From assembly GCA_052327205.1 (NCBI GenBank), contig CM126228.1:8370001-8434000 (forward strand): a DNA stretch of 64,000 nucleotides, read 5' to 3'. Numbering within the stretch: position 1 is the stretch's first letter; every line of letters starts with the position of its first letter. The notes below the pieces were generated by a model. That model made no database searches, was not told the DNA's origin, and was given only the letters and a program-made list of their open reading frames with translations. The stretch comes from Somniosus microcephalus (taxonomy: Eukaryota). This document shows positions 7,320 to 44,495 of the stretch, piece by piece. The position numbers and the translations under genes were made by a program.

Positions 7320-7699
7320 ACAGTTTTGGGTGGACTGGGCCAGCGGCACAGGAGCGCTTGCCAAAAAACAGGTGAGCACTTTGTTTAAATAATAAATTGG
7401 GGGCTTATCAGTCCCATGCATCACTTTCCACCATTCTGCTGGGCAGGACCTCAGACATCAGAATGTGACATGGGTGCAAAGAGTTGCTAGGCAGCAGTAA
7501 GTATAAGGGATGTCATGAAAAGGACACGGTAATATATAAGCAAGCGTATTTAAAATAATTTCTTAACCCTTTTTCTTCATACAATGTTTTTGCTTCTTTC
7601 CTGTTGGCACTTAGGTTCTCGTGAGCCTTTGTGCCAATTATTGTTTTTTTTGTCTCAGCACCATTACTAACACCAATGGGTTTCCCAGTGGGAATCCCC

Positions 7700-8060: not shown

Positions 8061-8936
8061 ACTAGCAATGACCTTAAGGAATTGTCCTCTCAGGTCCTGG
8101 GTCACCAGAGAGACAAATGGAGAGGCACCTGTGACTTCCATGCAGTGCTCACCTATGAGGTTGGTGTGATGGAGTGGCACAGGGGGCCACCATTCTTGTA
8201 ACTACTTCATGCATCACCACCCTCATTTCAGCAGTCATCAAACAAAGGGGGTTCTGGGCTGTTTCCATCACTCGTCGACCCAACCCATCCCTGCACCTTT
8301 GGTTTCCCTTCTCTTTATTGTTGTCTGTCTCTTCCTAGTGCTTTGCCTCCTCAGGCTTGGCAAGAGCTGCTAAACTATTGAGATGCCTTTGAGGCTCTTC
8401 AAAGGTTTTCATAATTTTGTCACCCTATTGTGGCATTCGCATTTAATTGTTCCCATGCCTTTAAATTTCAGTTCCATGCAATACTTCACTCTCTAGTCCT
8501 GCCCAAATCGGCACTTGAAGTTATTGCTAACAATCAGACCACAGAAAGTAACACCATTCCATTTGAGTCTCTCCAAAACCCACCAATAGCTGTTCCAGTC
8601 TAAACTACACTAAAAGCTTGAATGCTGCAGGTAATTTCATCATTGGAGATGTCAGTACCTGTCCTCATCTGATTCCTCCCCCACCCCACCCCCACACACA
8701 TCCACATCTTCTAACAGGGGTCATTGGATAGCAATCAAGAGCCGGAACTCTAGATGGAGTCAAGCTGAACACTCCAATTGCTGCTCATACTCGGCACACA
8801 CTACAAGTTGAACCAAGCAACTTCCAGGTCTGTATGGGTCAGTTACATTCTACCTTCACAAAATGAACCATCAGGAGGGACTGCAATATAGTATTCTAAC
8901 ATTAGGATGGTCATTACCTTAATGCCCACAGGGAAA

Positions 8937-9263
8937 AGAAAGAAAGACTTGCATTTATATAGCATCTTGCATGACCACCGGATGTCCCAAAGCACTTTAC
9001 AGTCAATGAAGTACTTTTTTGAAGTGTAGTTACTGTTGTAATGTAGGAAACGCGGCAGCCAATTTGCGTACACCAAGCTCCCCCAAACAGCAATGTGATA
9101 ATGCCCAGATAATCTGTCTTAGTGATGTTGATTGAGGGATAAATATTGGCCCAAGACACCAGGGATAACTCCCCCTGCTCTTCTTCGAAATAGTGCCATA
9201 GGATCTTTTACACCCACCAGAGAAGGCAGGCGGAGTCCCCGGTTTAACGTCACATCCGAAAGA
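8937..9263 (-). mobile_element. Deu-domain SINE, 5'-truncated
   Basis: Homologous to 20056-20523. Confidence 0.85.
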
Positions 9264-10219: not shown

Positions 10220-10306
10220 AGGGTTTGACCCGAAACGTTGACTCTTTTTTCTCTCCACGGATGTTGCCTGGCCTGCTGAGTTTTTCCAGCATTTCCTGTT
10301 GTTTTT
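10220..10306 (+). mobile_element. 87-bp Penelope-like 3' fragment
   Basis: Perfect 14-bp TSD TCATTAGAACTCAA (10206-10219, 10307-10320); begins at hammerhead stem II (AGGGTTTGACCCGAAACGTTGACT). Confidence 0.8.
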
Positions 10307-12880: not shown

Positions 12881-13448
12881 TAAATATCACTGCTTGCAAT
12901 ATCCAGCAGCTGTTACTGTATGTTTAAGGGGGTCTGCGTGGGGGTCTGTGTTTTATTCTCTGCCTCACCCCCCAGATTGTCTCACTCCCTCTTCTGTGGG
13001 TGCACAGTCTTGTTGGGCTACAGTCTCGCCAACACTGGCAACCCTCCGCTACTTCTCCCAAGCGACCGCTCTTCATGTGGGAGCTGAGATAGTGAGTGTC
13101 AGCAGGCTATTTGGCTGTGAAGGGCATCACAACCAAGCCCGCTATGTTCTCACCCATGCATACTTGTCCAGTACAAGCTATTGGGTGGCTGCTTTCCTCC
13201 ATGCTCCTTAGCCCAGGGCGCTGAGTCCAATTGTAGCATCTTTGCTGCAGTCCTGGCATTTGGGGGATTGAACTTGGTACCTTTTTGACTGTAATGGCTT
13301 AGTACCACCCTGGGCAGTCTACCTGCAAAGCCATTGGGGAAGGAATGCTTTGCTCCTTCATCATCTATTAAACTACTGCAGTTGATCCCGTAGCAAGTGT
13401 CAACTGCTCCACTTACATGCTGTCTAATTATAAAATACTTGCCCCATG

Positions 13449-13912
13449 TGTCAGCCGTGGCTGAGTTGGTAACACCACCCCCCCCCCCCCGAGTCAGAAG
13501 GTTGTGGGTTCAAGTCCCACTCCAGGGACTTGAGCACAAAAATCTAGGCTGACACTCCACTACAGTACTGAGGGAGTGCTGCTCTGTCGGAGGTGCTGTC
13601 TTTCGGATGCAATGTTAAACTGAGGGCCTGTCTACTCTCTCGGGTGGATATAAAAGATCCCATAGCACTATTTTGAAGAAGTTCTTCCCCGGTGTCCTGG
13701 GCCAATATTTATCCCTCAATTATCATCACTAAAACAGATTATCTGATCATTATCTCATGGCTGTTTGTGAGAGCTTGCTGTGTGCAGATTGGCTGCCGCA
13801 TTTCCTACATTACAACAGTGACTACACTTCAAAAAGTACTTCATTGGCTGTAAAGCACTTTGGGACATCCGGTGGTCATGAAAGGCGCTATAAAAATGCA
13901 AGTTTTTCTTTT
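13449..13912 (+). mobile_element. Full-length tRNA-derived Deu-domain SINE (SacSINE1-like)
   Basis: A box TGGCTGAGTTGG, B box GGTTCAAGTCC, Deu-like core (gtctttcggatg..aaagatccca..ccggtgtcctgg), tail aaaggcgctata.aaatgcaagt. Confidence 0.88.
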
Positions 13913-16354
13913 CATACAGGGCATTAACAACATGAGCTGCAGTAGACACAGGAAGGCACTTGCAAAATTCCTGCGCGTGCAAAACCCTCAAATGATCATT
14001 TCTGCATGGTTAAAGATACCGGAACTAGAATATCTCAAAAACTGGATAGGGACACCAGGCAGACACCTTGTTCTATCTCTGTGTTCTCGCTAATCTGCTC
14101 GTCTGTAGTGCCAGGCTGATACCATCTAGAAAAGTTGACAATATTTTCTTAAGTTGTAATCTTTTCTCACTGGTTCATTTATATGGCAGTCTGTCCTTTT
14201 CCGTATAGAATCAGAATTATGCAGGTTTTGTGTTTGTGAAGTTTTGGCACTATACTATATTTACTATATTTCTCACACCAAAAGCAATCAAATAAATTGA
14301 TCAATTTACTAGAGCTTAATCTTGGATTAGCCATGATCAACCATGATCGCATTGAATGGCGGAACAGGCTCGAGGGGCCGAATGGCCTACTCCTGCTCCT
14401 ATCTTCTATGTTTCTATGTTTCCCTTTTTAAAAAATATATATATATAAAGCTGTCTTATTAATGTAAATATGGCTTGTTACTTGTAAGTAAATGAGTTTT
14501 TTAAATAATATTTCATCCTGTTAGGTCTCCTTGTTTTGGCTGTTTAAAGCTAATTAATGAAAATCAGTTCCCAGCCTTAACAGAACAGCGCTGTAATTCA
14601 TTCCAGTTCTCACTCACTCACTCACCATAGAATTCATGATTTATTTCACAGAATCACAAGGAAGAGAACTTCAATGTCTCTAACCAGAGCCAGGAATGAT
14701 CCTCAAAGGAGCAGAACCGCCTACTCGAGTCTCCAGAATCCTGCCCAGATTTTGCATCAACCCATCTCAAAAAGGTGGAAAGTTACTGGTCCAGGTGCGT
14801 GTCTTATTTCTACCTATTTTGATACTTGTTTGTGTCTCCATCTCTCTCTTCCTGTTTTCTAAAGTTACAATAAGGAGTTTCTTAAATGATTTATTAATAA
14901 TGAAAGACTGGTGGAACTCACTGGCCGGAGAATGAGAATACTTAAAAAAACAGATCGGGAACTTTTCAATTAGATCTTAAGGGGTAAGAAGGGGAGAGGG
15001 GAAGATCTCACCAAAGATAATCTTAGAAGGGGGATGCATTCTCCAGGTTACTGTCGAGGACAAACTAGATGTGAATTTAAGCAGCTCTTTGAGAAAGGTG
15101 TTTTAGCAGAAAAGCCCCGTCCTCATTCCCCAAATGTATTTCATTCCGAAAATTCCTGGTCAGGGCAACTCATTCCTGCAATAAAGAGAGGGACCAAACT
15201 TGCAAAGGTTTGCCGCAATTGAAATGACTGAATATATATTAATATTAATATTATATCCGTAGAGAACCGCGCTCTAAATGACTGAACTAACTTTAGTTTG
15301 TGAAAAGTAAATTGGGGGGAGGGGGCTGATTTCAAGCTGGGGTTTGATAGCATTAAAACAGGAGACCCCCCCCCCCCTCCCGAAACATTGAAAAATAAAT
15401 TCAGGATCTGAATTGTGGGGCCCAGCTGTCGATAGAGGATCTGTCTGTCCCGGGAGCGCGTTGTTTCGCTCTCACACACTCTGTTACAAACACAGACTGC
15501 TTTGAAGATGCGACTTGGGAGGACCCTTCTGATCTCCATTCGCCAGTCACACTGAGACTGTTAAAGCTCTGGAAAGAACTGCTGTTTGACTTAATCGATA
15601 ACCCTGTGTCTATCGATTGCTTAAATTTCATTTTGCAAATCCAGTTACCCTAAAACAGCGGGGTAATTGATTAAAAAATAGGCAGATTTAGAGTCGGAGT
15701 AACATTAAGTCGCTTTGCGGGAGGTAATAGAAACTTCGACCCAACGTCCTGCAGCAGTGTAAACATTATGGGGATTATTATATTCTAAGGAGATCACTAT
15801 ACAGTGACTTTATGGAACATTATTAATAAACAGTTTATTAAGCATTGCCATCTTGAGACGTGGTTTGGGAGGTGTCTCCCTGGCTTAGGTTGCAGTGTTT
15901 GTGTCACAAGGACGGTGCAGGATGAGATATAGGGACTCTCCTGAAGAACCTTGACCCTTCTTTCTTCACCTCCTTGCTATCCATCAGAACCAGGAATCTG
16001 GTCACAGAGCGGGGAGCGAGGAGGTAGCAGTGGTGGTGACAGGAGCTGCCTATGGACCCGTCCGTGTATCCACCCTAAGTAACGTGCATTAAAAAAAAAA
16101 ATATATATATATAACTAATGTATTTATAGTTGAATATGTCTCAGCCCCTTTAGATGATCTGCCTCGCTCCCTATTGAGAATACAACCTTTAGCCTTCTTT
16201 CTGCCCACTCGCATCAATCGGTGAAGAAAATCACATCGCCAAACTAGCAATTCCGAAATTAACTCCTTGTTACCAAATGAATGATTGAATTCTATTTAAC
16301 ACACTTCAGCCCACGAAAATAAAGAGTCCAAGTAAGTATTGACCTGGGTTAAAA

Positions 16355-17470: not shown

Positions 17471-20055
17471 AGCCTCTACAATTAGTCATTTATGCATATA
17501 CTTAGATTATCACAAACTCACGACACACACTTATTTTCGGGGCCAATATTTGATGCTGAGTGAATATGTCAAATTCAGTTCTTACTATACGGGATACCAG
17601 GATTTAAACGATGTTTTTGGGATCGGATTGCTTTCGTCTCGTCCACCCCCCCCCCCCCCCCCCCACCTCGTAAAACCGTAAATTAATGGTTTTAATTATT
17701 TTAATTTGCTGCAATTTAAAACAAAATTTTCCAGTGATCTATTCATCGATAAGTTAAAATAAAAGAGATGGCAATAGGATAGCAGATCCTGCGTTTTGTT
17801 TTAATGTCAGATGTGCAGCGTTAGTGGTTCTCTTATCCTATTGTTAATTGATTTCTGGAACATGTGAATTAAAAATTGGATCGAGGATTAGCGGAACCCC
17901 AGAGAGTGTGTGCGAGCGTGTGGTAGTGTCTGTGATTGCGACTTCTGTGCTGGTCAGTGTGAATGTGTGAGCGCACGAGTGTGTGTGAGCGAGTGAGCTT
18001 GGAAGGGTGAGTATGTGAAGGCGAGAAAGTTAGGTGTGCAGAAGTGAGAGTGTAAATTTGTGGGTAAATGAATTGGAGTGAGTGCAGGTGTGAGTGTAAA
18101 TGAGTGTACGAGTGCAGGCACGTGTTTTAACACCATTGAGTCTGAATACATGAGTGTGTGTGAGAAAGTATAGTGAGTGTGAGTGCAGGGGTGTGTGTGT
18201 GTAAGGGGCGGGGTGAAACACACAACCTGATTAATGCACTTTTAATACATGCCAACCAGCTCTGTCACGAACAGATTGCACTAATAGTGTAAACCATCAG
18301 ACATCAATCTACATTTATATAGCGCCTTTAACGCAAAATAAACGTCCCAAGGCGCTTCACAGAAGCCTAATCAGACAAACATTGACAGCAAGCCAAGGAG
18401 ATATACCTATCCCACACCGCATTATAATCCTTCGGTACCTTAATCCTTGGAAAAGGGAGTGTGATGTAGAATTTAAAATATTTTATCTAAAAAAAACAAG
18501 TTGATTGTGCACTCTTTAAATGGCAGTCTTCACCTCGAATTATACCGCGCCTTCTCGAGTTCAACGCGCAATTAATAAATAATCAGGTATCATATTTAAT
18601 AATTACCAAAAATAACATTGGTAGATAATATTATTTTGACAATTACTACTAATTTGATGCGGGGGGATGAAAGAGAATGGCAGAAAGTGCCAGTGTTGCC
18701 CGGTATCTGTCTCACAGGGTCCTTTGAGTGGATGTGTTGGGGAAAGGTGCTATTGTGGTTAGGGGGATATGTGTAAATATTCCAACAACCTTCTAATCCC
18801 TCTTAATGCTACAGTCCCTGACTGCTACTTAAGGACTTCCATCCAACATGGAATTGAGCGGTTCTGTGATGTCCAGTGTTGTGGTTCGGGGAGGAAGCGG
18901 GTTTGCAATTCAAATGCACCTATATTTTAAAAAAAGTGGACGGTGAAATTATGGTCCGCGAAATTAGAGAAGTGCTGGTCAAATCCGGGAGCGTTTTGGG
19001 TGGGGAAGGAAATGCAATAATGGAAGGGACTGAGTTTGTAGATGCTCACGAGTCTAATACAATCATTACAGAATGCAAACTTGTCTATCTTCACTGAGGA
19101 ACGCTTTATGTAACATTCTTTTCTGTTCTGAAAGGAACGAGCTGGGAATGTATCGTGTACATGAGGTTTTAAATAGAGCCTGTACCACACTGAAAGGGAT
19201 GGGCTGTTTGATGCCAGCCTCATCTCAGCCATTGCAATGCAACTTTGTCTGTAATGAGACGGGTTGTAGGTTGAAGGGGTTCTCATTGCAGCAGGAGGCT
19301 ATGCTGAATTCCCCAATTTCTCGTCCACACTGATTATTTTGTAAGGTTTTGGGAGGCGAGGATTGCGAATCCTGCAGTTGGAGTTAAAGGCGTGTCATTG
19401 CTGAGGATGCAGGAGTTTAGAGAATTGTCCATTCCAAGTTACAAACTGGTCCACCTGAGAATGACCAGGGACATTAAGACCCTTTTTGGAATGACTAAAT
19501 ATTTTTTTTAACTCAGACGTTGTAAAATCCATACACACAGAGCAAAAACCACACACATAGACACTCTCTCTCTCTCTCTCTCACACACACATCTGATAAA
19601 CACAAATGGACAGACTTGGGTGAATGAGGTTAGCCCAGTTGGAGAAAATTATCTATGGGACTGGCTCCTTTAGTTTTCCTGAAAACAGCAGGAGGCAAAG
19701 AATATACAAGGAGAGGGTCAACTTAATATTTTTACAGCTTGATTCTGGAATAGAATAGATTGTCCTTGTATGCAAACAAGTATTGCATTTTGAGTAAGTC
19801 AAAGGTATTATCCTGATGTGGCCATGGTTTTAAGTTATACCTTTGTTGGTGGTAAACAGAATGTTACTATTTTTAAATACTCAGTCGCACATACAAACAT
19901 ATACCAGTGAGACTACACTTACACCTCCGCACACATAACAATGGATTGAATTTCCCACAAGTATTCATAACTAACTGTAAAGGAAACAATCAGAGACAGT
20001 GTATAAATATTAGAGGTAAAGACTCGCCCTCGCACCCTCCCCATACACAGATAGC

Positions 20056-20523
20056 TGTCAGCTGTGGCTCAGTGGGTCACATTCTCGCCTCTGAGTCAGA
20101 GGTTGTGGGTTCAAGTCCCACTCCAGAGACTTGAGCTCAAAAATCCAGACTGACACTCCCAGTGCAGTGCTGAGGGAGTGCTGCACTGTCGGAGGCGCTG
20201 TCTTTCGGATGAGACGTTAAACCGAGGCCCCGTCTGCTCTCTCAGGTGGATGTAAATGATCCCATGGCACTATTTCGAAGAAGAGCGGGTGAGTTCTCCC
20301 CAGTGCCCGGGGCCAATATTTATCCCTCAACCAACATTGCTAAAAACAGATGATCTGGTCATTATCACATTGCTGTTTGTGGGAGCTTGCTGTGCACAAA
20401 TTGGCTGCCGCGTTTCCTACATTACAACAGTGACTACACTTCAAAAGTACTTAATTGGCTGTAAAGCGCTTTGGGAAGCCCTGAGGTTGTGAAAGGCGCT
20501 ATAGAAATGCAAGTCTTTCTTTC
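20056..20523 (+). mobile_element. Full-length tRNA-derived Deu-domain SINE (SacSINE1-like)
   Basis: A box TGGCTCAGTGGG, B box GGTTCAAGTCC, Deu-like core, L2-type tail ending in (CTTT)n. Confidence 0.9.
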
Positions 20524-22576
20524 TATACAGCCCCTCCCCCTATACACAACAGACCGCCCTCCCCCCAGCCGCGCAACTTTTTTATTTTCAGCAACTTCCA
20601 CTGCTCACATGGATACTTCCATTATTCACAAAATATGTCCCAGATGTTTCACTGTTAAAATCCCAAGTCCACTTTGCAGCACACATCTGGCCACACGCTG
20701 TTGGCAGATTGTTTCTTCAAGACTGCTACACACCTGTGATGTCATTAATAAAAACACACATTTGGAAAAGGGGATTTTAAAAGTTGCCGGAACCGGAACT
20801 ACCCAGCTGTAGACCTGCCCAAGGGACCGCACTCGTGAAGCCAACCATCTTCATTTTAGGTGAATTAGTAAAGCGCATAGACATTCAATGTAAGACAAGT
20901 TTACTGATATAATCGCGCATGTGTCGGATAACATCTATTTTTCTCTGTCTGAAGAATCAGATGCGGATTATTTGTACACACAGTAATTGTTGGGTTAGAG
21001 AATCAGTCTGACCCTGAACTTTTGGATGTTGGGTCTGCGTGGAGATCTCAAACGCCATCATGCGGGAATAGGTGAACAGTTCATTCTGCTGTTCCCGCAG
21101 TTAAATTATCAGCGCCTAGTTGTATAATAATAAGGCTTAATAACACACACTTAATAATTACCCTAAGGGTCAATCTTTATAAGTAACTGTGAGGCACATG
21201 GAAGCTGAGGCATAAATCTAAATAGATAGCAAATACTGCACAGTGGGCGTTTATTAAAATAGCTTCGACACTCCTCTCCCCCCACACAGCAGTAAACTAC
21301 AAGAAGTCCATTAGATCTCACTCAGAATCAGATTATTCCCATTGAAGTTTACAGTGATCTGTACTTGCATTTTTACATAGAATTGACAGCACAGAAACAG
21401 GCCATTCGGCCCAACTGGTCTGTGCTGGGGTTTATGCTTCACACGAGCCTCCTCCCACCTTACTTCATCTCACCCCATCTGCATGTCCTTCTAGTCCTTC
21501 CTCCCGCCTGTACTTACCTTGCTTCGCCTTAAATGCATAAAATACTTGTATGAAGACTGATACAAGTCTCCCAACCAGCACCAGTATGGATCATTGGATT
21601 GAGATGATCGTGCACTCTTGCTGATGTTTGTGCTCCCCACCCTCCGTTGTCTATTTTTCACCTTGTGGCCAACAGTAGCACCTGGGACACTCCCACAGCA
21701 ACGAAAAGTTTCACCCCAGGTTTGGTGTTTGTTAAATTCAAACTTACAGCTGGAAATATTGAAACAAAATTAAAGTCAGGTTTCATGGAATTGCCACAGA
21801 AGGCAAGTTCGTGTTTAGGTGTAGTTTCCTACATCACAACAGCGACTACACTTCGAAAGTGCTTCATTGGTTGTAAAGCGCTTTGGGGCGTCCTGAGGTC
21901 GCGAAAGGCGCTATATAAATCCAAGTTCTTTCCTTTCTTAGTTTGAAAACGGCGTAACTCTGACATTGCCTGCACCCTCCAGGTACGGAGAGACTGATGG
22001 ATGTTTCATTTCAGACACAGAATATATAGGTTTACCTTTAACTAACTGTAAAAGCCATCACTAGGATTCCGTGCATTGGTCATTGGTGGACTGTTAAACC
22101 ACAAAGTGCAGTCACAACATCATTGGATGCAGTCATGTTTTCTCTGCTTTCAAGTTTATGTACGAGTCCCAGGCAGTTATTAAAATACATATTGTGTTCT
22201 CTGATGCCCGGAGTCCCGCTTGCAGCTTTGCAGTTCCCACAGACAGCACGGCGTCTAAGAGATGCATTTTTTCTGTCCAAAAATACTCGAATTCCCATTT
22301 TAACACTGCAACAATAAGCGCTGCGGTTAATTCATAAGGACAGAATAAAGAAGCGTCGCGTTTGAAAGGGGGAGGGGTGCAAACAGGGAATACTGAAGTC
22401 AGCTGTCTTTAAAGAAGCAACGGCTTCTGCCAGCCAAGTAACTTTGTGCTCGGTGTTTGCGCTATGGTGGGATTTAGCACAAGAGAAACACAGGAAGCAA
22501 CCTGTTTGGTACATGGCTGAAGGTGCGTTGGACTTCGGAGTTTACGTACTGGTGTGTATATTTGTACTTAGCGAAA

Positions 22577-26930: not shown

Positions 26931-28834
26931 GGATGAAACATCGCTTGATTGACGGGAAATAATGATTGACGTTAGAGGGCGTCCCGTAGACAAACAGTTA
27001 ATGTAAATATGCTGGCGCTAAGTGGGTGTGTCTTCCTATTATTTTAGCTGTCACTTGATCGATGTAAACCTATTCAACTAAGGCTCAGCATCGCACCCAT
27101 CCTGTTACCATGTGTTTGCTCTGTTGCATTAAGGAGAGGGGACAATTTTGGGACATGGATTTGCAAGACCTTCCCTGAAAATACCCGATACCTCTGCACC
27201 CCCTTCCCAGAGAGAGAGCGAGAGAGAGGGAGGGAAAAAGGGCACGGACAAGGGGGCACAGGGATTACACACTGCGGGACAGGAGTTTCGGAATTCGGAG
27301 CCCCTCTCCCAGCCTGCAAAAAGGAACCAGGAACAGAGCTGTGATTACGATTCTGCCTCATGTCTCCCTGGCAGCAACTTTTATTTTCTGAAAATTGGAA
27401 GACAGCATTGGTTTCAGATTGAACAAACAATAAGGGTAAAGTTTAATCTGTTTTCTCCCTCTTTCTCGCTGCTGTGTGTGAGTGAGTGCTGGGGTTTAAT
27501 TACGGTTCGCTTCCATCTTATTAAAGCCGTGAATTCCTGGTGTATTCCGTGTAATTACACTTAATGTTCCGATCCGTTTAAGGTGAGCCCGTTTTACTGG
27601 TTCGGTTCTGATTCTAACGTTAAAGTTATATTTTAGTCTAATCCCTTTTAGAATGATCAGCTGTGCATAGGATTTCTTTCTAGCCCTTATACATACATTT
27701 CTTGTAAAATCTTAAGTCAAGAATGTTTCCCCAAACAGCAGTTGTGATCTATATTGCAGGAAGTACTCCCGATTTAAACCCATTCACTTATCTGATCCGG
27801 GCTAGCGATGTGATGTAACTACTAATTGAGCGTATCAATCGTTATTGTAAAATCGCTGGAGTACTTAAACCGCGTCGCTCCTCCTGTCTCTCTCCGTTTT
27901 TGGATTAAATACATTTAGCAAGATGATGTCTCGCAAGGATTGCAGCGCGGCGGAATCCAACTAAGTTTATTTAAAGCACGTTTTTTTTTTAATTTAAAAA
28001 AAATCTTGGTTTAAACATTGCGATAAGTCATCCACGGCTGAAAAAAAACAATTTCTTTTCTCTGCATCACAGAATTAACCTGTCCCACAATACAAGATTC
28101 TTCTTGAATCCTGAAGTGAAGCAAAGCAGGTAGGAATTGCACAAAAAAATTAAAATTAACAGCTGGGATTCTAAGAGGAAGAATTTCGACTTTTTTTGTA
28201 CAAACATTTTAGTATTGTATATGTGGCGTCTGGCTCCGATAGTTTTTTAATCTAATGGGATATTACAACAGTGTGGCGCTGGGTTTAGCAACTGCAGAAA
28301 GTGCTTTTATATATATATATATAAAATGGAAATAATATCACCAGATTATACTTTTCAGTTTGAGACTCAACATACTGTACAGAAAGGGAACTTGTGTCCG
28401 AGTAAATCAGCTGAAAATCCTTCATTATTTTCAAGGAAAAAAGATTTTTTTTTGATTAAAACATTGTAAATTTACAGAGGATTACTTGCAGTTAATTGGA
28501 ATAAATTGCATTTAAAATATATATATATTTCTGATCGGGACGTGGCCTTAAATAATTGCATATTTATACTTAGACAGCGTTCGGTATATTTACAAATGAG
28601 AATCTCGTTTATTTAGATGGGAAATATTTCTCTATCCCACAGTGTGATGAATTATTTTAATTATGGCACCAAATTATATATGCACAGTTAATGTACAAAA
28701 TAAGCTTCGCGTCGCAAAATGCTGTGCGTTTTTAATCGGTTTTCATAAAACGTTTTGAAATGTAATATAAATATATATATTGATATAGAATTTTTGGCGC
28801 ATTTTATTTCTATTTTCTCGACAGAAACTCCGGA

Positions 28835-30568
28835 ATGGAGAAGATTTCCAGTCAGCTGGGAGTAGTGAATGACGCCGCCTCTTCTCCAACCTCGAAGCAG
28901 GAACTCCAGCCTTACAGCCAGCGAGAGCACCCCGGCTCCAGCAATCTGAAAACTAACACAGTCGGGGAGGCCATACTATACGGGCTTCCTATTGTTTCAC
29001 TGGTGATTGACGGACAGGAGAGACTGTGCCTGGCCCAGATCTCCAACACCCTGCTGAAAAACTACAGCTACAACGAGATCCACAACAGGCGGGTGGCCCT
29101 GGGTATCACTTGCGTCCAGTGCACCCCGGTCCAGCTGGAGATCCTCCGCAGGGCCGGAGCTATGCCCATCTCCTCCAGAAGATGCGGCATGATCACCAAG
29201 AGGGAAGCGGAGAGGCTCTGCAAGTCTTTTCTAGGGGAGCACTCGCCTCCCAAACTGCCCGAGAACTTTGCCTTTGATGTATCTCATGAGTGCGCCTGGG
29301 GTTGTCGAGGCAACTTCATCCCAGCAAGGTATAACAGCTCTCGGGCCAAATGCATCAAATGCAGCTATTGTAACATGTACTTTTCTCCAAATAAATTCAT
29401 CTTCCATTCTCACAGAGTCCCGGACGCTAAGTATACCCAACCAGACGCTGCTAACTTCAATTCTTGGCGGAGGCACCTCAAACTCTCTGACAAGACTCCG
29501 TCTGACTATTTGGCCCACGCTTGGGAAGATGTCAAGGCAATGTTCAATGGAGGGAGCCGCAAAAGAACCCTCCCTAACCATGGATCGGCGGGCTCACCTG
29601 CTCTGAAAGCTCACGGACCCAGCTCCATCCCTCCCAGGAATTCAGAAATCCCCCACAAGGCCATGAGGTGCGAGGACGAGGGGCGCAGTCTAAACCTTGG
29701 GAACAACGTTAGGAGTTACCCCGTCATTCCAGTGCCCAGCAAGAGCTTCGGCATGTTGCAGAAGATCCCCCCTCCCATGTTCCCGCACCCCTACGGATTC
29801 CCGACCTTTGGGCTGTGTCAGAAAAAAGACGACAGCAGCGTGGTGGGGGAGAAGACGCAGGGAGCTTTGCCTGGCATGTTCTGGCCAGGTAGCAAGGACA
29901 CTGTCTACCCTTCTTTCCCAATGTTTTGGCCCGCCGCTGGCACTTTACCGGTGCCCCCATATCCACAGGCCCAGCCAAAAGTCACAGAGAATCCAAATGC
30001 CAGGCAGAGTGAAATCGACGTGTCAGAGCAGAGTGACCGAAGCACCAACACGCCCAAGGACAGTTTGGCAGACAGCGAAAGGTGTTCGAGCACTCACTCC
30101 AGGAACGAGGAGGACAGATCGGGAGACGAGGCCAGGTCCATAGAAGGGATGTCCCTCACCCCTCGAAAACTCAATTATATCTCAGCCTTCCGACCGGTCG
30201 TCAAAGACGCGGAGAGCATCGCTAAACTTTATGGCAACAGAGAGGTGTACAATGGATCCAGGCCTGGCTACTTGTCTCCGGATTTTATGAGCGAGAGTTC
30301 AAGCTACAGGTCGGTGTCTCCGGATATAGACAGCGATGGAGAAGAGCCTGAGGTGGACGTGGAGTCGAACAGATGTCCAGAGGACGAACCTTCTCCAACC
30401 ATGGTGGAACCCATCCAAGAGGCAGAGATCCCACCCCAAGAAACCCCCGCTAACCCAGAGCCCACACACGAAATATCGAACAAAGAGGCCCTGGGAACAC
30501 CTTTTGGCGATCAAGGATCTGAAGAACCCAGACCTGGCGAGCAGAGCGTGGAAGAGAAAGCTCACGAG
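28835..30568 (+). CDS. SKOR1: SKOR1 large first coding exon (DHD/Ski-Sno domain, SAND-like SMAD4-binding domain, Pro/Ser-rich region; 578 codons)
   Basis: Translation contains LYGLPIVSLVIDGQERLCLAQISNTLLKNYSYNEIHNRRVALGITCVQCTPVQLEILRRAGAMPISSRRCGMITKREAERLCKSF and HECAWGCRG..CIKCSYC..FIFHSH, diagnostic of SKOR proteins. Acceptor ttttctcgacag ends at 28824; ATG at 28835; phase-0 donor GAG|GTAGAG at 30568/30569. Confidence 0.97.
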
Positions 30569-31221
30569 GTAGAGAACATATTGTTGGTCCTTTCTGAAAT
30601 GTTAATTCTGCAATTAAAAAAAAAATGTTCTCCACATCATATTCACTTTGTCTAGTCTGTGGAGAGAAAGTTAAACAATTTGGAGAAATCGAAGATAATC
30701 TAAGATGATATATTTGGAATATATTAACATCAATGTGCAATTTTAAACAGGAAATGCAGCGAAACCTAAAGACAATCCTGGCACATGGCGTGGCCCTACT
30801 GACACCTGAAACTTAGCAGCCAGACACATTTAAATAAGAGTAATTAACCAAATTATAGGAACCTATTTATTGCAACTGAAGTTAGGCGGGTGCTGTAGCC
30901 GCCAATGGGCGCTTGTTGTGTTCGGCTCCATTCTAATTCGAGTTATTCTCTTTCAAGTATCCATGGTTGCATTTATTAAAACTAATGCACGCAAATAGAG
31001 ATTAGCACCAACTAGAGGTTTGAAGATCACTTGTTCAAAATCCCGGGGACTTTTCGGGGGAGGTCGTGTTCAGAGAGACATTAAAAGCAAAAAAAAAGAA
31101 TAATCCCTCGTTAAACGGGAGGGACTTGGAACACCCCCAGGAGTAGGAGACCTCGCATTAGGAGATGAATACCTTGCGGTAACAGTTTGTAACCTTCTCT
31201 CATTTCTTTATCTATTTGCAG

Positions 31222-31309
31222 GTGTTTTCACATGAACATTTGCACAGCGTGAAAAATCCTTCCACGGCGGCCTCTGCAGCCACTTACATCTGCAGTACAG
31301 ACACAGCCG
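31222..31309 (+). CDS. SKOR1: SKOR1 coding exon 2 (VFSHEHLHSVKNPSTAASAATYICSTDTA)
   Basis: tctatttgcag acceptor, G|GTAATC donor; 88 nt, phase 0 to 1, which restores the frame into the next exon; weak similarity to the mammalian ..AASYVCT.. segment (recalled). Confidence 0.85.
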
Positions 31310-31549
31310 GTAATCCCTCCCCCCTCTCCCATTAATCTGAGTGAAGGCGTGTTTTATGTTCAACACAAGCGTCAGACTTTCTTGAACTTTAGTATATGTT
31401 ATCGTCACCCATACATGTGTGAACAGCAACAAGATTGAAATGAGTGTTTACATGAGGAAATTAAGTTTGGGGAGGGGGGGAGGTAATTGTTTCTTGAACA
31501 GTCAGAGAAAATGCTCAGCGTTTAATGGTTGAAGATAAAACTAGTTATC

Positions 31550-31765
31550 GAGGTATCTGATCTGGAACGCGCTGCCTGAAAGAGCGGTGGAAGCAGATTC
31601 AATCGTAACTTTCAAAAGGGAACTGGATAAATAGCTGAAAAGGAAAATTTGCAGGGTTCTGGGGAAAGAGCAGGGGGGAGTGGGACTAATTGGTAGAGCT
31701 CTTTCAAGGAGCCGGCACAGGCACGATGGGCCGAATGGCCTCCGCCAGTGCTGTATCATTCTATA
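31550..31765 (+). mobile_element. CR1 3' fragment in a SKOR1 intron
   Basis: IWNALPERAVEADSIVTFKRELD plus the gggccgaatggcctcc terminus; a similar copy lies at 35750-35960. Confidence 0.85.
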
Positions 31766-32046
31766 GTTGTTGATCTTCACGTGTCATAGTGAAACAATCA
31801 CATTTTAAATTTGTAATAAAAAAACTGTAGAGAATATGGGCATGGGTAAAGGACAATCCCGATGATAGAAAGGTTCTGTTGTGCTACTTCTGGCGTTCTC
31901 TTGATTGCATGGGACTGTGCAAGAAAGGTCCTTTGATAACTCCAGGCAATTATGGGGGCCGCTGATAGGGGCTATGTGTTGTCAGCCTTGCAATTAGAAT
32001 CACATGTCGCTTGCTTACACTGAAAATCGGTTTGTTGTATTCCAAG

Positions 32047-32154
32047 AGCAAGATAACGAAGACAATCAGTGCACAGCGGAGGACTCCGAGTCCAGGAAAT
32101 CATATCAGGAGCAAAGCAGCGCCTCCCAGGAAACCTCGGCCAGCACTGAGCGGG
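32047..32154 (+). CDS. SKOR1: SKOR1 coding exon 3 (EQDNEDNQCTAEDSESRKSYQEQSSASQETSASTERG)
   Basis: gtattccaag acceptor, G|GTGAGT donor; 108 nt, phase 1-1; similar to recalled mammalian EPDKEDNHS..RKSY..NTDRG. Confidence 0.92.
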
Positions 32155-32754
32155 GTGAGTGCTCTTTGCTTGGGATCGACAACTTTAAAAGGGAATTTGT
32201 GCAGAAGTTCGCTCTAGTCAAACCAAATCGGATCGTTCCATTTTTACAAAAGTTTGTATTTGGCATTGAATGTAAAGATGTAAAAAAGTATTCATAATGT
32301 CAAGCACTGCCAAGACCAAAGCTCGCAGCGCATATTGAATAAAACACACGGTAATATATCAGTCATGTTATACATAACATGCTCCTTCAGTGCAATCCCC
32401 CATGTGTTCGTTAAGCACATTATTCCCCCATTTTTGGGAGAGTGCAACTGTTATTGATGATCTGTATTTTTGGGGGGGTCATTTTATTTTTCAAGCTTCT
32501 TAAGAGTCCAGACAAAGTTTCTTGTTCAGAGATACTAACCGACTCAGAGTCACCCCACCTCACAACCTCTAAGGTTTCCGCCACACACAACATCCCACGC
32601 TCGCCAATGAGTTCAAACACTGCCCCACGAGCTTTGTGGCGATGCTTTCACACCAGGTTTGAACAGATAGCGACTGAAATCACTTTCAGACTAAACAATC
32701 GTTCCTGCTTATTGTATCTGACAAGGTTCAACTGTGTTTATGTCCATCACACAG

Positions 32755-32826
32755 GTGAAGATGGCATTAGACTGGAGACCCCGAGAACCCAACTGGTCGA
32801 AAAAGATATTGAAAATATGGGGAAAG
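32755..32826 (+). CDS. SKOR1: SKOR1 coding exon 4 (EDGIRLETPRTQLVEKDIENMGK)
   Basis: catcacacag acceptor, AAG|GTCTGA donor; 72 nt, phase 1-1; LVEKDIEN motif. Confidence 0.93.
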
Positions 32827-34065
32827 GTCTGAGTTCTGACTTTCTATATTTTGCTTAGGAACCGAGACCTCGGGTAGATTCTATCCATGTCACCTTTGCT
32901 CAGAATCCTTTACACTTCTAGCTGTCTGGCTTGGAAAGTGGGATTGCAGAAGCTTTGTTGCAGTAAATGATTGAGAATCAGGATCTTTTTAATGTTGTCA
33001 ACTATTTCTTTCCTTTACTCGAGTGTCACATTTTCCTTTCGAACTATTCAGAACATCCCGACATTTAAAAGTTGGGGGCTGAAGTTTAAGGGAAGACAAA
33101 CTGTGAAGGAACGACCGAATTCCCTGAAGGCTTTGGTCGTGCCTGCACAGAGAGGAGGAAGCAACGAGAGTTCATGCATTGACATACTCGGTTTATCCCG
33201 TTTAAATTGAATTCAACAATATATTTTTGTTCATTTTTGTAGCCTTATGGAGTGTGCCCCTGACTCGCCTCTCGACCCTTGGAGGAAAGTCACTGCCTCA
33301 AATCTTTAGTGTGTTTTAAGATTTTTTATTTTGTCGCCGTTTGATTTTCGAATTGCAGTGCGGATTGAGCCAGGAATGGGTTGTTATTTTGTAACTGGTG
33401 AGTTACACAGAAGCAACTTGCTCATTGGGTCCAAACTGGTGATTACTGCGAAAAGTAAACGGATCTGAACCCGTCTCTTGTCAATTAATATGCAAGTGGT
33501 ACGACTTAGTGTTGGGCTTTGTAAACCGCTGCTGCTCACGTTTTTATTTCTCTGGAGCTAGTGGTTCTGCACCTGATCGAGTATTAACCGGGCTGACATG
33601 TAATTAAACATCATTTGATACGAATGTGTGGATGAATTAAGAAGTGTTAGCGCTATTGTACCTGTTGGCAAGCGATGAACGAAGATGCGGGGTATTCACA
33701 GTGAAGAATGCACCATGTGGGTTACTGGTAATCGTGAGAAGTCCGTGCTGATCAATGATTAAGATGGTTAATGGGAACATCAGCGTGTATTGTGGCTGGA
33801 TATACCACGGGAGGACTGATTTAACATTCATGGCCCCAGGTACAGCCCACTGACATCGCTCATCGGAAGTGACACTTTATTCAGAACCCAAACTGTCAGG
33901 TATCCGATGGCACACACCTCCCTCAGATAATGTGCATCTTTTTTTGAATGTATGGACCAGATTGAAAAATGCTTTTCCTTTAACGAGTGTCCCTGACAAA
34001 TGCTCACAGCAGGTTTCTGTACAAATATGGAAGCGAGTTAAGATCCCTCACTCTCTGTATTTCAG

Positions 34066-34140
34066 AAGAATTACAAAAACTGCTTTTGGAACAGATGGAC
34101 CTTAGGAAGAAGTTAGAACGTGAATTTCAGAGTTTGAAAG
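34066..34140 (+). CDS. SKOR1: SKOR1 coding exon 5, coiled coil (EELQKLLLEQMDLRKKLEREFQSLK)
   Basis: ctgtatttcag acceptor, AAG|GTACGT donor; 75 nt; SKOR1-type coiled coil. Confidence 0.96.
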
Positions 34141-34633
34141 GTACGTCACTCTGAAACTGTTATCTGGGAAGGATGTTAACCCGGTATAGTAAATCTGTTG
34201 GCTTCAGATAGCTGAACAACATTAAATACTGCTCCCAAATTCTGATGGATAAATCTGTTGTGATTGCAATTTGTTAACACATTTATTGTCCTATAAAAAC
34301 AGTTGTGGATAATTGTATATTTAATTACCAAAATCCTTACGGGGGAAATGGTCTGAACACAGTTAGCCTACAAATCTCTTTTCCTCCTTTGGTAATGTAA
34401 TTCTATTGAGCTTATATAAAGGCCCAAAAATAGGACAATCTTTGGGTGAGAAAAGAGAAGGGAATTGGTGAAAGTTGCAACTGCAGGAGAGAGAGAGAAA
34501 AAATAATAATTCGTTAATTGGGATTAAACCCAATAGACAAGGCGAAGACGATTTTTTGAAATAAATCTATTTTGGATGGAACAAAAAGTGTGCCAATAAA
34601 TATTCACTTGAAATCTGCCCTACTTTCCTACAG

Positions 34634-34708
34634 ACAGTTTTCAGGATCAGATGAAGAGGGAATTGGCCTATAGAGAGGAAATGGTCCAACAGCTTCAGAT
34701 CGTTAGAG
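34634..34708 (+). CDS. SKOR1: SKOR1 coding exon 6 (DSFQDQMKRELAYREEMVQQLQIVR)
   Basis: tttcctacag acceptor, GAG|GTAAAA donor; 75 nt; conserved SKOR motif. Confidence 0.97.
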
Positions 34709-35336
34709 GTAAAATGCAATCAGGTGTTTATAGTCTTGATCTGGGCACTCTTCAGTAAGCATTTCATCGAGTGCATTAAAACCATTTATAGTTAAATTAT
34801 TTTTCAATAATTTCAATTGTAATAGCGCTGACCCTTTTTTAAAATATATATGTTACCGTGAAACGTGCCCTTACCGAATCAGTACAGGCTGATTAGCCCC
34901 TGCATTCGGATCCCGTGTATAAACGGCTCCAAGGCATCATTACAAATAACTGATTGAATTTTTTCTCCTACTGCAATTTTCATGCTGTCTAAATTAAAAA
35001 TCGAGGCGTAAAATTACCTGTGAAGTAGTGCCTAACTTTGGTTTAATTTTCAACTGGTTTGCAGCTTGCCTTCCAGCGCAGTCCACCTCCATGGGCACAG
35101 AGCATGTGGCGGCGCCGCGGGGGGTTTTTATTTTTCAGACAAATCTAAACAGCGCGGTGATTTTTATCAGTTCATCTAGAACTCATTTGAGTTAGCAAGG
35201 AGAGAGATTGTAAAAAGAACCACAAACACATATAGAAGCTAGGATTGTTTTAATTGGGACTTGCTGAAGTTCTCTCAGTTTTTGTTCAAGCGTCTCTGCT
35301 GCTTTTCTCAGTGATGGACTCATTTCGTTTTGACAG

Positions 35337-35402
35337 ACACGCTCTGCAATGAACTAGACCAGGAGAGGAAGGCGCGTTATGCGATCCAACAAAAGCTAAA
35401 AG
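35337..35402 (+). CDS. SKOR1: SKOR1 coding exon 7 (DTLCNELDQERKARYAIQQKLK)
   Basis: ttttgacag acceptor, AAG|GTAATG donor; 66 nt. Confidence 0.97.
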
Positions 35403-35749
35403 GTAATGACTTCATCCCCATAATCTGACTGACACGCTCGCTATAAAAGGGGGCGACAATAGACGCGAGCACAATCCTTAGTCTAACAGAACAGGGTCTC
35501 AGGTGGACGAGAGGCCAACGAGAGAATGAGAAGCTGGAAGAAAGGATTGAGGGGGAAAAAACGATATTAAGAGCAAGAATAGAAAATATAAAGAAGCAGA
35601 TGGGAATCGAAGCAAGTTAAAGGAAAGGTGAATTTGGTAAAGAAAAGTGTTAAATACTGGATCGAGGACAAAGATCTGATCGGTTTTAGATGGAAATGTC
35701 ATTGAAAGTAAAGGAAGATAGAACAGAATAATTGTATATTAGGGGGAGC

Positions 35750-35960
35750 CGAGGATTTCTACACAGCGAGTTGTTGTGATCTGGAATGCATTGCCTGAAA
35801 GGCCAGATTCAATCGTCACTTTCAAAAGGGAATTGGATAAATACTTAAAGGAAAATTTGCAGGGTTGTGGGAAAAGAGCGGGGGGGGGGGGACTAGATCA
35901 GAGCCGGCACAGGCACGATGGGCCGAATGGCCTCCTCCTGTCCTGTAGGATGCTATGATT
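35750..35960 (+). mobile_element. CR1 3' fragment in the last SKOR1 intron
   Basis: IWNALPERPDSIVTFKRELDKYLK. Confidence 0.85.
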
Positions 35961-36098
35961 TAAAAAGAGGATTTAATAAGATCATAAATATTGATTAAGT
36001 GTGCGCATCAGATCAATGTTGATGAGAAGGATGTTTCAGATACACTGTGCCAGTTTCTAATCATTTCTCTGTTACATTTCCCATCTCCCTGCATCTAG

Positions 36099-36196
36099 AA
36101 GCACATGACGCCCTCCATCATTTCTCGTGTAAGATGTTGACCCCGCGACATTGCACTGGGAACTGTTCCTTCAAACCGCCTCTGCTCCCGCAGTGA
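36099..36196 (+). CDS. SKOR1: SKOR1 last coding exon (EAHDALHHFSCKMLTPRHCTGNCSFKPPLLPQ*)
   Basis: ctgcatctag acceptor, TGA at 36194-36196; C-terminus characteristic of SKOR1. Total CDS 2316 nt. Confidence 0.97.
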
Positions 36197-40760: not shown

Positions 40761-42840
40761 TTGGTGATGGGTGAGAGAATGTCAGAAAATTAGAAACAAC
40801 AGAAAATAGTCACTAGGATGGTCATGTGGAAACTTTTAATACTTGGCCTTGCACTGGATTGGAGTTATACTGCACCTGGTGCAGGAAACTTGGCTTCAGT
40901 GTTCTTGGAAGTCAGATGGCTGACCTGACTCTTGATTCGTACCTCTGCCTTCATATTGATTTGCATCCAACACCACTTTGTACATGAAGTGGTCTAAAAG
41001 CTCAGTTAGAGGACTGCATACAGCTGTGAAATACTTGCCAGCTGTGGCAATAGGGAAGCAGGCAGAAGGCAAGTTGGTTTGGAAATTATCTGTGTTGAAT
41101 ATAAAATTCCTCAGAAGGAGACACCTACAGTAGGTGACAGAGGCGACTACAGCATAGAGAAAGAGAATAAGATGGACTGTTAATTAAACTAGACAAGTAG
41201 CTGACTGTAATTTTGTGGATTCTGAATGTGATGGAATGGAATGGGACAGAATTGGCCAAGAAGGTTAGAATGTGCTGCTTGATAAAGGAAGTGATTAGAC
41301 TGCTGCCCTTGAGTTGACAGTCAATCAGGGATATTTCTGGGGGGGGAGGGGTTTGATTGGTGATTTGACTTCCAAGGTCTGAAACAAGCTCCTACAGTCT
41401 GCCGCACCCCTGCTCTGTGCGCAGGCTGGAGTATAACTCCAGTGTGTTCGGTTGCAGGATGGCAGGTCTCAGCTTGGTATCACTGTCAAATTGTGTGTTT
41501 TTTTTTGGTTAAATGTCACGTTCCATGATATTTAGAAAGTTTTTTAAGTTTTTTAATTATTTTTTCCACAAAATTAAACAACAATTTTCCTACATTACAA
41601 CAGTACTTCAAAAGTACTTTAAACTGTAAAGAGCTATGGGACGTCCTGAGGTTGTGAAAGGCCCATATAAATGCAAATCTTTATTTTTGGATGTATGCTG
41701 TGGGATGCGAGCGTACATCACACCGAGCCAATGATAGGCAGACATCCCAGAAAGCCAGTGGCCACTTTCTGATTGTAGAACAGTGCACCCGATTGGAGGG
41801 ACAGTATAACTCCAGTATAACTGTAGATACAAACACAAATCTCTTTCACATCCCTTTCCTTCAGTACATTTACGCTGTTGTTTAAGCAGCAGGCAGAAGA
41901 AATTCGTGCAAATGTGTTCAAGATTTTTTTTTACAATTCAAACCCCCTCGTGTTTAGGTGAAGCAGGTTTGTGTGAGTGTGAGATATGTTGGTGAAACTG
42001 GGGAGTAATTCACTCACATGGAAACTTGGGGTCCGCAGCAGCCTCGCATTCCAACGGCGGGTCTGAATTATAAACTGCGAGCCATGCGGAGGGAACTTTG
42101 GAAAGTTGGGCTGCCCCGGGAAACTTTTTAAATGTTGGCCGAGAGTTGACCGGCCTCACCGTTTCTGTGGACACTGAATTGGTTTGTTGGATACCAGCGC
42201 GTTGGCAGCTGGCCGAAGACCAGCGCAGAACTGGCGAAATAACGGCGCTGTTACACGTCTTACCCCTGGGGTGAGCGATTTTCCGAGGTTGCGACACTCT
42301 CCTGTGCTCCCACTCTTCCAGCGGAGGGACCGGGCTGAGTCTGACTGGGAATAAGAGGTCACTGGGCTGAAACATTAACGCTGTGTTTCGGTCTCTCTCC
42401 ACAGATGCTGAGTGTTTGCTGCTTTTACTTTGGGTGCCAGGTGGGCTATCAGGACAGTGGAGACACAGAGGCAGCACAAATGGGGTCGATCCCTCTTTTA
42501 TTACAAGAGTGTCTTCACAAGTTTTTTTTTGTCTTTTAAATAAATTGGAGAAGTGCATCACAGGCAAACTGACCCTGCACCGGCTGAAAGCAGTTGTACA
42601 ACTCGGGGAAAAGCGACTCTCTGCCGCCACCGCCTGAGCAACAACTGCAGGAGGAGCAGGACTGGGTGACTGACAGAACTGGGGAAATGCAGCACTGTTA
42701 CCTCCAGTCTGATCGCTCTCAGTAAGATACTGCTCTCCAACCCAGATCTGCGGTGTAATTATGTCCCAGCAAACCAAAAGGGCAGGCAGAATAGTGAGAT
42801 ACAGAGGGAAACGACTTTATATCCAAGTCGTTATATCCAA

Positions 42841-42945
42841 CGAAGGTCCTGAAGAAGGGTTTCGACCTGAAACGTTGACTCTATTTCTCTCTCCACGGAT
42901 GTTGCCTGGCCTGCTGAGTTTTTCCAGCATTTTCTGTTGTTATTT
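42841..42945 (+). mobile_element. Short Penelope-like insertion with intact-looking hammerhead
   Basis: 12-bp TSD CGTTATATCCAA (42829-42840, 42946-42957). Confidence 0.8.
42845..42880 (+). ncRNA. Minimal type I hammerhead ribozyme motif
   Basis: GGTC-CTGAAGA-A-GGGT-TTCG-ACCT-GAAAC-GTT-GACT: both conserved core boxes, stem II with UUCG loop, palindromic AACGTT stem III, 4-bp stem I. Activity untested. Confidence 0.65.
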
Positions 42946-42959
42946 CGTTATATCCAAGT

Positions 42960-43928
42960 CGTTCTGACGAAGGGTCATCGACCTGAAACATTAGGGCTGG
43001 ATTTTCATTGAGGAGGCCTGTAGGAGGCGGGACTACAACTTTTGGGGTTGTAGTCCCGCCTCCATTGAGTTCTAGCCAACCCATGCAATTTTCACTTGAT
43101 TCACCTTGTTGAGCCCGCCCAGCGGGCTCAGCAGGCCAATTAAGGGTCACCCGGCAACAGGTGACGTCACAGATTGATATTTCATCTGTCAAGGCCTTTT
43201 GACAGACGAAATATCAGTGTTTCACAGCTGTTTGAAGCTGTCAAACACTGACAATCTGTACTCTAAGTTAATTCCTTTCTCTCAGGATGATTTAGAGATC
43301 TCCCCGGAACAGAAAGCTGAATGCTGGAACTTTTGACAGCTCGCGGCCATTCTGCTTTCTGTGCCGGTAAGATGAGGGACTCCCGAGACCTGAAGGAAGG
43401 AAGGCTGTAAAGGTTAGTAGAACTTCTTTAAACACTTTAAACACACCAAACACACTTACCTCTTCACTCATGCATCCATCACTCACCTGAACACCAGACA
43501 TCTCGAACCCTCCAAGTCCTTCAGCCCGACGGTCCGCCTCGCTAACTTGGCGTGGTTTGGAGTCATCGGGAATCCTACACTTCAGGAATAAAAATAGCAA
43601 TTAGGCTAAAAATTGCCTGTTATCTACCTGTTAACAGGCAGTTAATTGGCACTAATCCCCTTCCCGCCTTGGGGAGGCGGGTCCCAGCGTGGGCGGGTAC
43701 CCGCCTCCTTTGAAACTGGCATGGAGGTGGGTTGGGGGCAGGATGGGTTCGTGCCCCCCGATTTCGAGATTTTAACCATCCACACGCCTCCAATCTCGCC
43801 TCCACGGCCCAATGAAAATCCTGCCCATTAACTCTGTTTCTCTCTCCGCAGATGCTGCCTGACCTGCTGTGTGTTTCCAGCATTTTCTGTTTTTATTTCA
43901 AATTCCCAGCATCCGCAGTATTTTGCTT
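42960..43928 (+). mobile_element. Second Penelope-like insertion at the same site, split by a DNA element
   Basis: TTATATCCAAGT at 42948-42959 and 43929-43940; CTGACGA core at 42964-42970; the host sequence resumes at 43831. Confidence 0.75.
42994..43826. mobile_element. 833-bp non-autonomous DNA transposon with TIRs and 4-bp TSD (Sola2-like)
   Basis: TIR GGGC(T/A)GGATTTTCATTG at both ends; ATTA duplicated at 42990-42993 and 43827-43830. Superfamily assignment is an inference. Confidence 0.8.
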
Positions 43929-44091
43929 TTATATCCAAGTGGGCTGGCCTGAGAATTCATTAATGGGATGTGTGGGTGATGATGGGGACTAGCCAAACCA
44001 GAGAATATGAGGTCAAAATCCACCATGCAGTTTGAGGGTTTGAATTCAACTTTTTTTAAAATCTAGAAATAATAAGCTGGTATAAGAGAGA

Positions 44092-44495
44092 AAAAAAGAA
44101 AGACTTGGATTTGTACAGTGTCTTTCACAACCACCGGGCGTCCCAAAGTGTTTTACAGCCAATGAAGTACTTTTTGAAGTGTAGTCACTGTTATAATGTA
44201 GGAAACGCGGCAGCCAATTTGCACACAGCAAGCTCCCACAAACAGCAATGTGATAATGGCCAGATTATCTATTTTAGTGATGTTGATTGAGGGATAAATA
44301 TTGGCCAGGACACCGGGGAGAACTCCCCTGCTCTTCTTTGAAATAGCGCCATGGGATCTTTTACGTCCACCTGAGAGAGCAGACGCGGCCTCGGTTTAAC
44401 GTCTCATCCGAAAGACGGCACCTCCGACAGTGCAGCACTCCCCCAGCACTGCACTGGGCGTGTCAGCCTAGATTTTTGTGCTCAAGCCTCTGGAC
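44092..44495 (-). mobile_element. Deu-domain SINE inserted in a second tRNA SINE
   Basis: Homologous to 20056-20523; flanks (43975-44090 and 44495-44755) match the SINE at 62496-62998. Confidence 0.85.

Follow-up and report, generated by a model that had tools for sequence, protein, structure and literature searches.

Short hammerhead-bearing repeats in a 64-kb window of the Somniosus microcephalus genome are pLTR-bearing 3' ends of a Penelope-like element

The locus and its repeat copies

In this work, we analyzed a window of 64,000 nucleotides of Somniosus microcephalus DNA (contig CM126228.1, positions 8,370,001 to 8,434,000, forward strand), with particular attention to a short repeat at 42846-42947, hereafter the focal copy. 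On the plus strand, the window contains a SKOR-like gene (28784-36193), whose large exon encodes Ski_Sno and c-SKI_SMAD_bind domains and to which tblastn added six more coding exons; we take it to be SKOR1. The focal copy is an ordinary stub located 6.65 kb beyond the last coding exon and stop codon of this gene. The window also harbors a minisatellite (52235-52985; 47 copies of 16 bp, 92% matches) and a different dispersed repeat, also abundant and 330-470 bp long (17-500, 8930-9263, 13448-13919, 20053-20524, 44087-44494, 54886-55228 and 60117-60583), in one copy of which the family member at 184-327 is nested.

A sequence-only reading of this DNA had listed seven related copies of a hammerhead-bearing repeat. 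Alignment showed these to be genuine, with pairwise identities of 80-93% across their common part, and a profile search of the window added two decayed plus-strand copies absent from that list, 42352-42426 (E 2.7e-7) and 63919-63968 (E 4e-8), the latter a fragment from downstream of the cut site. With nine copies in 64 kb, the family is some four times as dense here as in the genome on average (14 per 399.5 kb). A full minimal type I hammerhead is retained in two of the nine: the descriptor search returned two window sites, with C3 at 42849 (plus strand) and 57035 (minus strand), which are the two copies previously named as possibly active, and returned none in 20 dinucleotide shuffles. The Rfam scan of the window gave no hammerhead match at E≤5, only four chance matches, and a CTGACGA...GAAA site at 53741, considered as a further hammerhead, fails the minimal type I descriptor.

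On the minus strand, the copy at 184-327 extends from the front edge of the ribozyme, carries a short inverted piece of tail and has a stem II mismatch, and does not pass the descriptor. The plus-strand copy at 7122-7319 has a tail and an inverted 5' arm (7122-7187) and lacks both C3 and the 5' strand of stem I, while that at 10220-10306, also on the plus strand, begins within the ribozyme and is devoid of CUGANGA. Two minus-strand copies are less truncated: 55500-55945 includes about 300 nt of 3' UTR, the tail and a ribozyme damaged by a G at position 17 and a stem II mismatch, and 56936-57326 includes 3' UTR and the descriptor-passing ribozyme at 57004-57039. Five copies had been credited with target-site duplications (TSDs) of 12-16 bp; exact duplications do flank five of the nine, but their range is 10-16 bp (10 bp at both 184-327 and 7122-7319, 14 bp at 10220-10306, 16 bp at the focal copy and 12 bp at 42960-43928), and no exact flanking duplication of 8 bp or more was found at the other four.

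The focal copy is a plus-strand, pLTR-only end without tail; it opens at base 2 of stem I and runs to roughly +70 past the predicted cut. Its minimal type I hammerhead (42846-42880, plus strand) matches the descriptor and comprises stem I (42846-48/42877-79), the core CUGAAGA (42849-55), an extra A (42856), stem II (42857-60/42865-68), GAAA (42869-72) and the palindromic CG, with cleavage predicted after GUU at 42876; the fold energy of stems I and II is -6.4 kcal/mol versus -6.7 kcal/mol for the MFE structure. An AUG lies at 42899-42901 (plus strand), 23 nt downstream of the predicted cut; in intact elements, the corresponding AUG shares the frame of the RT ORF. The left copy of the 16-bp duplication (42817-42832) is followed by a 13-nt filler (42833-42845), a partial re-copy of the target, and family sequence begins at 42846; the right copy (42948-42963) shares positions with the left TSD and the initial bases of an older copy. 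Of the GGTC/GACT stem I covariation proposed for this site, the outer pair is lost, as G42845 belongs to the junction filler, and the inner change from U-A to C-G stands.

That older copy (42960-43928, plus strand) belongs to an older subfamily, has a tail, and its ribozyme is split at the palindrome, where it also has a CpG change. The split is due to an 833-bp element with terminal inverted repeats (42994-43826, no strand assigned), which lies between two ATTA in the palindrome. The older copy would have inserted before being split by the 833-bp element, with the younger focal copy placed at its left junction. A cis-dimer of the focal copy with 42960-42992 was considered and rejected, as ACAU replaces ACGU and the 833-bp insert splits it. 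The palindrome of the ribozyme is a repeated target of inverted-end elements starting with GGG or GGC (42994-43826, and loci L183, L218 and L135), whose insertion breaks the ribozyme.

The focal copy is identical over 101/101 positions to a longer copy that extends into the 3' UTR (L002), and over 96/101 to an ORF-linked copy (L031). Because it diverges from the intact element (86 matches, 8 mismatches and 4 gaps), we assign it to a recent, but not the youngest, subfamily. It is most likely a passive insertion. Cleavage in vivo at 42876 by this lone copy is unlikely because it has no helix III, its fold is not favored, its potential partner is broken and published monomers are inactive.

The parent element and its hammerhead

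Walking upstream from genomic copies to a reading frame led to the autonomous partner with RT and GIY-YIG domains that the sequence-only reading had anticipated, its ORF being contiguous with the repeat and on the strand of the ribozyme. In 20 of 22 loci sampled around the RT-thumb region, the family sits where the ORF plus 3' UTR match ends; of the two exceptions, L044 lacks it and L048 carries it about 750 nt further on. A 695-aa ORF (P0001) contains the motifs DKG (KPADKGG), FRYIDD, a CX4CXXC linker (CKRRRCNTC) and YIG, and matches RVT_1 (E 2e-6) and GIY-YIG (E 0.002) in Pfam, in the correct order and both below the curated cut-offs; a PDB sequence search with the ORF gave 0 matches. One locus (L050) is a complete pLTR-ORF-pLTR unit of 3144 bp. 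Furthermore, 62 of the 64 scored matches in the protein search were stop-free, and 15 copies with a 977-codon frame, in a unit of 3.15 kb, diverge by only 0.03-2.0% (mean 0.6%). The additional sequence of the 55500-55945 and 56936-57326 copies is 3' UTR; at 10 out of 14 other loci, it connects to the C-terminal end of GIY-YIG. What had been described as two subfamilies with different 3' tails has to be revised accordingly: the "tails" are the element's 3' UTR, which, read on the ribozyme strand, is positioned 5' to the ribozyme, and the ribozyme subfamilies are at least five.

Judged by its motifs, the element appears to be an EN+ PLE of Neptune type, since DKG and the CX4CXXC linker mark Neptune/Nematis and the linker excludes Poseidon; in the accessible text of Li et al. 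(2026, bioRxiv 10.64898/2026.07.22.740005), Neptune and Poseidon are the only PLEs found in vertebrates. The accessible portions of the Neptune descriptions (PMC8557442; PMC3846280) agree with our element in the RT followed by a C-terminal GIY-YIG, DKG, the CX2-5CXXC linker, partial-tandem pLTRs, inverted 5'-truncated arms, an optional 30-40-bp tail, TSDs of about 10 bp and an ORF start inside the pLTR. They give no difference in kind, and 5' truncation, inversion and the optional tail are standard in PLE integration as portrayed there. Partial-tandem pLTRs, inverted 5' arms and the optional tail of 30-40 bp are all present in our element. Taken together, the tiny repeats do not form a retrozyme family of their own: they are 3' ends, bearing the pLTR, of a Penelope-like element with RT and GIY-YIG. 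Their identification as Penelope-type minimal hammerheads is borne out by the linkage to the ORF and by the core features: CUGANGA, GAAA and UH, stems I and II, and a palindromic stub of stem III.

We also analyzed the conservation of the fold. In 164 parsable copies, the pair 2.1-1.1 is U-A in 94, C-G in 44, U.G in 14 and C/A in 5, and the pair 10.1-11.1 is G.U in 103, G-C in 32, A-U in 24 and A/C in 1; the extra A after A9 is found in 163 of them and the CG of the palindrome in most. Stems I and II do covary across copies, as had been expected, with the caveat that independent events are few: on the weakly resolved ORF tree there are about one to two changes per pair, and the counts are of copies and not of events. 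In 24 chosen copies, 98% of the cells were paired compared with 14-46% when the alignment was slid, and double changes were found in three of nine pairs; two pair-type covariation measures on these 24 copies did not exceed the shuffles (263 and 464 of 500). The 3-8 pair, whose C3-G8 form is an active-site pair (PMC3088659) and for which U3-A8 covariation is known from the accessible parts of earlier work (PMC4209133; PMC3088659), occurs in three states in the young clade: in the first 100 of 17,754 matches, counted by hand and with some rows being arms or duplicates of one insertion, there were 25 C3-G8, 37 U3.G8, 37 U3-A8 and a single C3/A8, i.e., one mismatch against about 10 expected (p 1e-5). 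In a mixed set, 13 of 14 C3/A8 copies stood in a CpG context. The ribozymes attached to intact ORFs in the 977-codon set are all U3.G8 and GUC, and the in-frame AUG lies 22-23 nt past the cut in intact elements and in the focal copy.

On these data, the fold is probably maintained by selection, for a slow cleavage of the parent RNA that depends on dimers. This has to be weighed against the possibility that the hammerhead no longer cuts and that its fold is kept for another function, for example to bind a protein or to start translation at the AUG. This second explanation, which we regard as rather unlikely, draws on the U3.G8 of the youngest intact elements. U3.G8 strongly slows hammerhead cleavage. 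Our literature search, with subscription papers outside its reach, found no report on U3.G8 activity. In the accessible parts of the published work, minimal PLE hammerheads show no activity as monomers and a weak one as dimers (PMC4209133), and one of nine Xenopus dimers cut (bioRxiv 10.64898/2026.07.22.740005); in addition, type I hammerheads of fungal viruses assist translation start (PMC13725137). Against it, the active-site pair 3-8 avoids mismatches as just described, and a second hammerhead family keeps the core and has a different palindrome. That family, with GC instead of CG in the palindrome and a 5-bp stem II (L072, L081, L141 and L149), has six descriptor matches in 600 kb and none in the window. 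As for the monomer, the hammerhead was not the MFE fold (z about +1), as expected without helix III. Two RNA-seq runs of 2026 from a related organism covered all 30 bins of the element, indicating transcription of the family in that organism; in neither run did read ends accumulate at the front edge or the cut, positions that fragmented cDNA resolves poorly.

Ends of the copies and a proposed RNA start

We surveyed the ends of 90 copies in genome order, picked through a 32-nt anchor downstream of the cut, with ends set by local alignment (error of up to a few bases) and numbered from the predicted cut. There are two fixed 3' ends, which differ by a 34-nt tail: 49 copies end at +58 to +87, without tail, and 41 at +96 or beyond, with tail. 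An inverted arm is adjacent in 25 of the 90. For the 5' ends, 87 copies were used, after dropping a duplicate (L206) and two later insertions into the palindrome that had given apparent 5' ends at the cut (L183 and L218). Eighteen of them start at -35 to -28, seven at -99 to -36, 27 at -27 to +21 and 35 beyond -99. The excess at -35 to -28, the front edge of the ribozyme, is significant relative to a uniform distribution (p 3e-9), with only seven ends in the next 64 nt upstream, and there is no excess of 5' ends at the cut site (6/27, p 0.27). A TSD was found in just 10 of the 52 non-inverted copies, and it abuts the end in 7 of 13 front-edge copies of this type versus 3 of 39 others (control, 5/200). 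Besides, two intact full-length copies (L274 and L276) begin at the A of stem I, one of them with an abutting 11-bp TSD.

The best explanation for these observations, to which we give a probability of about 0.8, is that the repeats are the pseudo-LTR ends of this element, likely left by reverse transcription that started 65-105 nt past the predicted cut and stopped early, the front edge being likely the start of the RNA. A nick made by the endonuclease would prime reverse transcription, in line with established PLE biology; the RT would start 65-105 nt past the cut and halt early, often at the first bases of the ribozyme, and transcription may start at the A of YYAGTY. As the cut site lies within nearly every inserted copy, the templates were uncut or re-joined. 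Selection on the catalytic fold would act in the parent RNA, where the fold probably works as a slow dimer. A linear RNA from the front edge cannot be the sole template, because 17 of 19 copies of unit length or longer, in a sample chosen by frame length, extend past it; for the longer-than-unit copies, a template jump, tandem read-through or a circle would be needed. We somewhat favor a scheme in which the RNA starts at stem I, the RT can prime at either pLTR, upstream or downstream, and the 100-140-bp stub is the shortest product that is complete. It is tempting to go further and to speculate, more tentatively, that the RNA starts at the very first base of the hammerhead, with a leader consisting of the ribozyme and then the AUG, that either pLTR has two fixed internal priming sites and the stubs are strong-stop-like products of the upstream pLTR, and that the active master, by shifting its catalytic 3-8 pair to a U.G wobble, has tuned down cleavage and thereby leaves most templates uncut.

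The pile-up at the front edge might alternatively reflect a splice acceptor or an RT pause instead of an RNA start, which we consider a sizeable but lesser possibility. A pyrimidine run plus CAG precedes the motif in all subfamilies, so that the front edge reads as a splice acceptor, the intron of the D. virilis Penelope, in the accessible text of PMC4209133, extends up to helix I's 5' end, and most very long copies pass the front edge. However, AG or G before the would-be exon is retained, with an abutting TSD, in L276 and L207, the 18 front-edge copies have no common upstream exon, no joint into the front edge appeared among the RNA-seq joints listed, and stem I would already be unwound once the RT arrives. 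In D. virilis Penelope, as far as the accessible text goes (Schostak et al. 2008, PMC2377424), the promoter lies in the pLTR and there is a 34-bp terminal extension, in both respects resembling our element, but transcription there begins 46 nt ahead of an intron of 75 nt whose end is at helix I, whereas our data suggest an RNA end at helix I. Returning to the reading of the front edge as the RNA start, our literature search, with subscription papers and preprint supplements outside it, found no report of a start site at a PLE ribozyme. A TATA-like run at -31 was rejected as a promoter box, as it occurs in the old subfamily and is absent from the active one.

Copy number and relation to known systems

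The sequence-only reading had proposed a high-copy, retrozyme-like population. High copy number was confirmed: 14 copies in 399.5 kb, sampled as forty 10-kb stretches at round coordinates and extrapolated to a 6.4-Gb genome, give about 2.3x10^5 ends (95% range 1.2-3.8x10^5), that is, roughly 2x10^5 genome-wide, and exact occurrences of a 15-nt half-core number 89,548, compared with 67 for the control. The retrozyme-like part found no support, as close direct pairs are rare and the copies are tied to an ORF-bearing element. Same-strand pairs of cores 85-445 nt apart numbered 687 against 89,548 cores (0.8%). Of 12 close pairs inspected, four were internally deleted elements and one a 146-nt direct repeat, and the remaining ones resembled neighboring or nested insertions; 4 of 120 loci had two same-strand cores, with a spacing of 618-1307 nt.

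An independent, retrozyme- or SINE-like family of short copies, transcribed, self-cleaved, circularized and mobilized in trans, is very improbable in our view, although many copies share approximately the same extent of 100-140 nt with clean TSDs, and the 687 close direct pairs do exist, the 146-nt direct repeat among them. Another case, an array of 323-bp units of the young subfamily (G000:C3:126047014-126047997), is the most retrozyme-like among the 100 pairs listed. Those 100 pairs show no common spacing, the 5' ends are not concentrated at the cut, and the focal copy is identical to a longer copy, all of which argue against such a family. According to the accessible parts of the literature on animal non-LTR retrozymes (PMC7229834; bioRxiv 10.64898/2026.07.22.740005), these share with our family the type I hammerhead, long TSDs and an origin from PLE pLTRs, but are tandem units of 150-450 bp with at least two ribozymes, while here less than 1% of the cores belong to close direct pairs. 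Our copies have TSDs above the 4 bp of the retrozyme definition (10-16 bp in the five window copies), but form no non-coding unit separate from the ORF-bearing element, and their ribozyme, with a 4-bp stem I and no helix III, is minimal instead of the canonical type I stabilized by tertiary loop 1-loop 2 contacts. The accessible text of Li et al. (bioRxiv 10.64898/2026.07.22.740005) counts dispersed monomers and notes that most PLE insertions keep one terminal repeat.

PLE hammerheads as a class have been known since 2014. The metazoan pLTR hammerheads, as characterized in the accessible parts of PMC4209133, resemble those described here in being type I without helix III, in the extra base between A9 and 10.1, in the palindromic 15.2-16.2 and the U3-A8 variant, and in occurring mostly as single dispersed copies of truncated elements. 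The same source gives about 4,000-9,000 motifs for coelacanth and Xenopus, compared with the roughly 2x10^5 ends estimated here; in contrast to the hammerheads it describes, stem II is here 4 bp, the intact subfamily is U3.G8, and C-G, U.G and U-A all occur within one lineage. We found no study of a shark PLE hammerhead in a search that left out subscription papers, Repbase and preprint supplements, any of which may cover the family. What our results add is an intact master with a U3.G8 core, genome-wide counts, a 3-8 pair that takes three states, and two full-length copies that begin at the front edge. They bear on the role of the hammerhead in the Penelope cycle, for which this genome can serve as a test system, as it offers a vertebrate element that is intact and very young, dated ends numbering about 2x10^5, and natural C-G, U.G and U-A subfamilies at the catalytic pair, which permit a direct comparison of cleavage rate with transposition success. 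Near full-length intact elements were also observed in head-to-tail arrays with a unit of 3153-3159 bp (L258 on G000:C22, L272 and L273).
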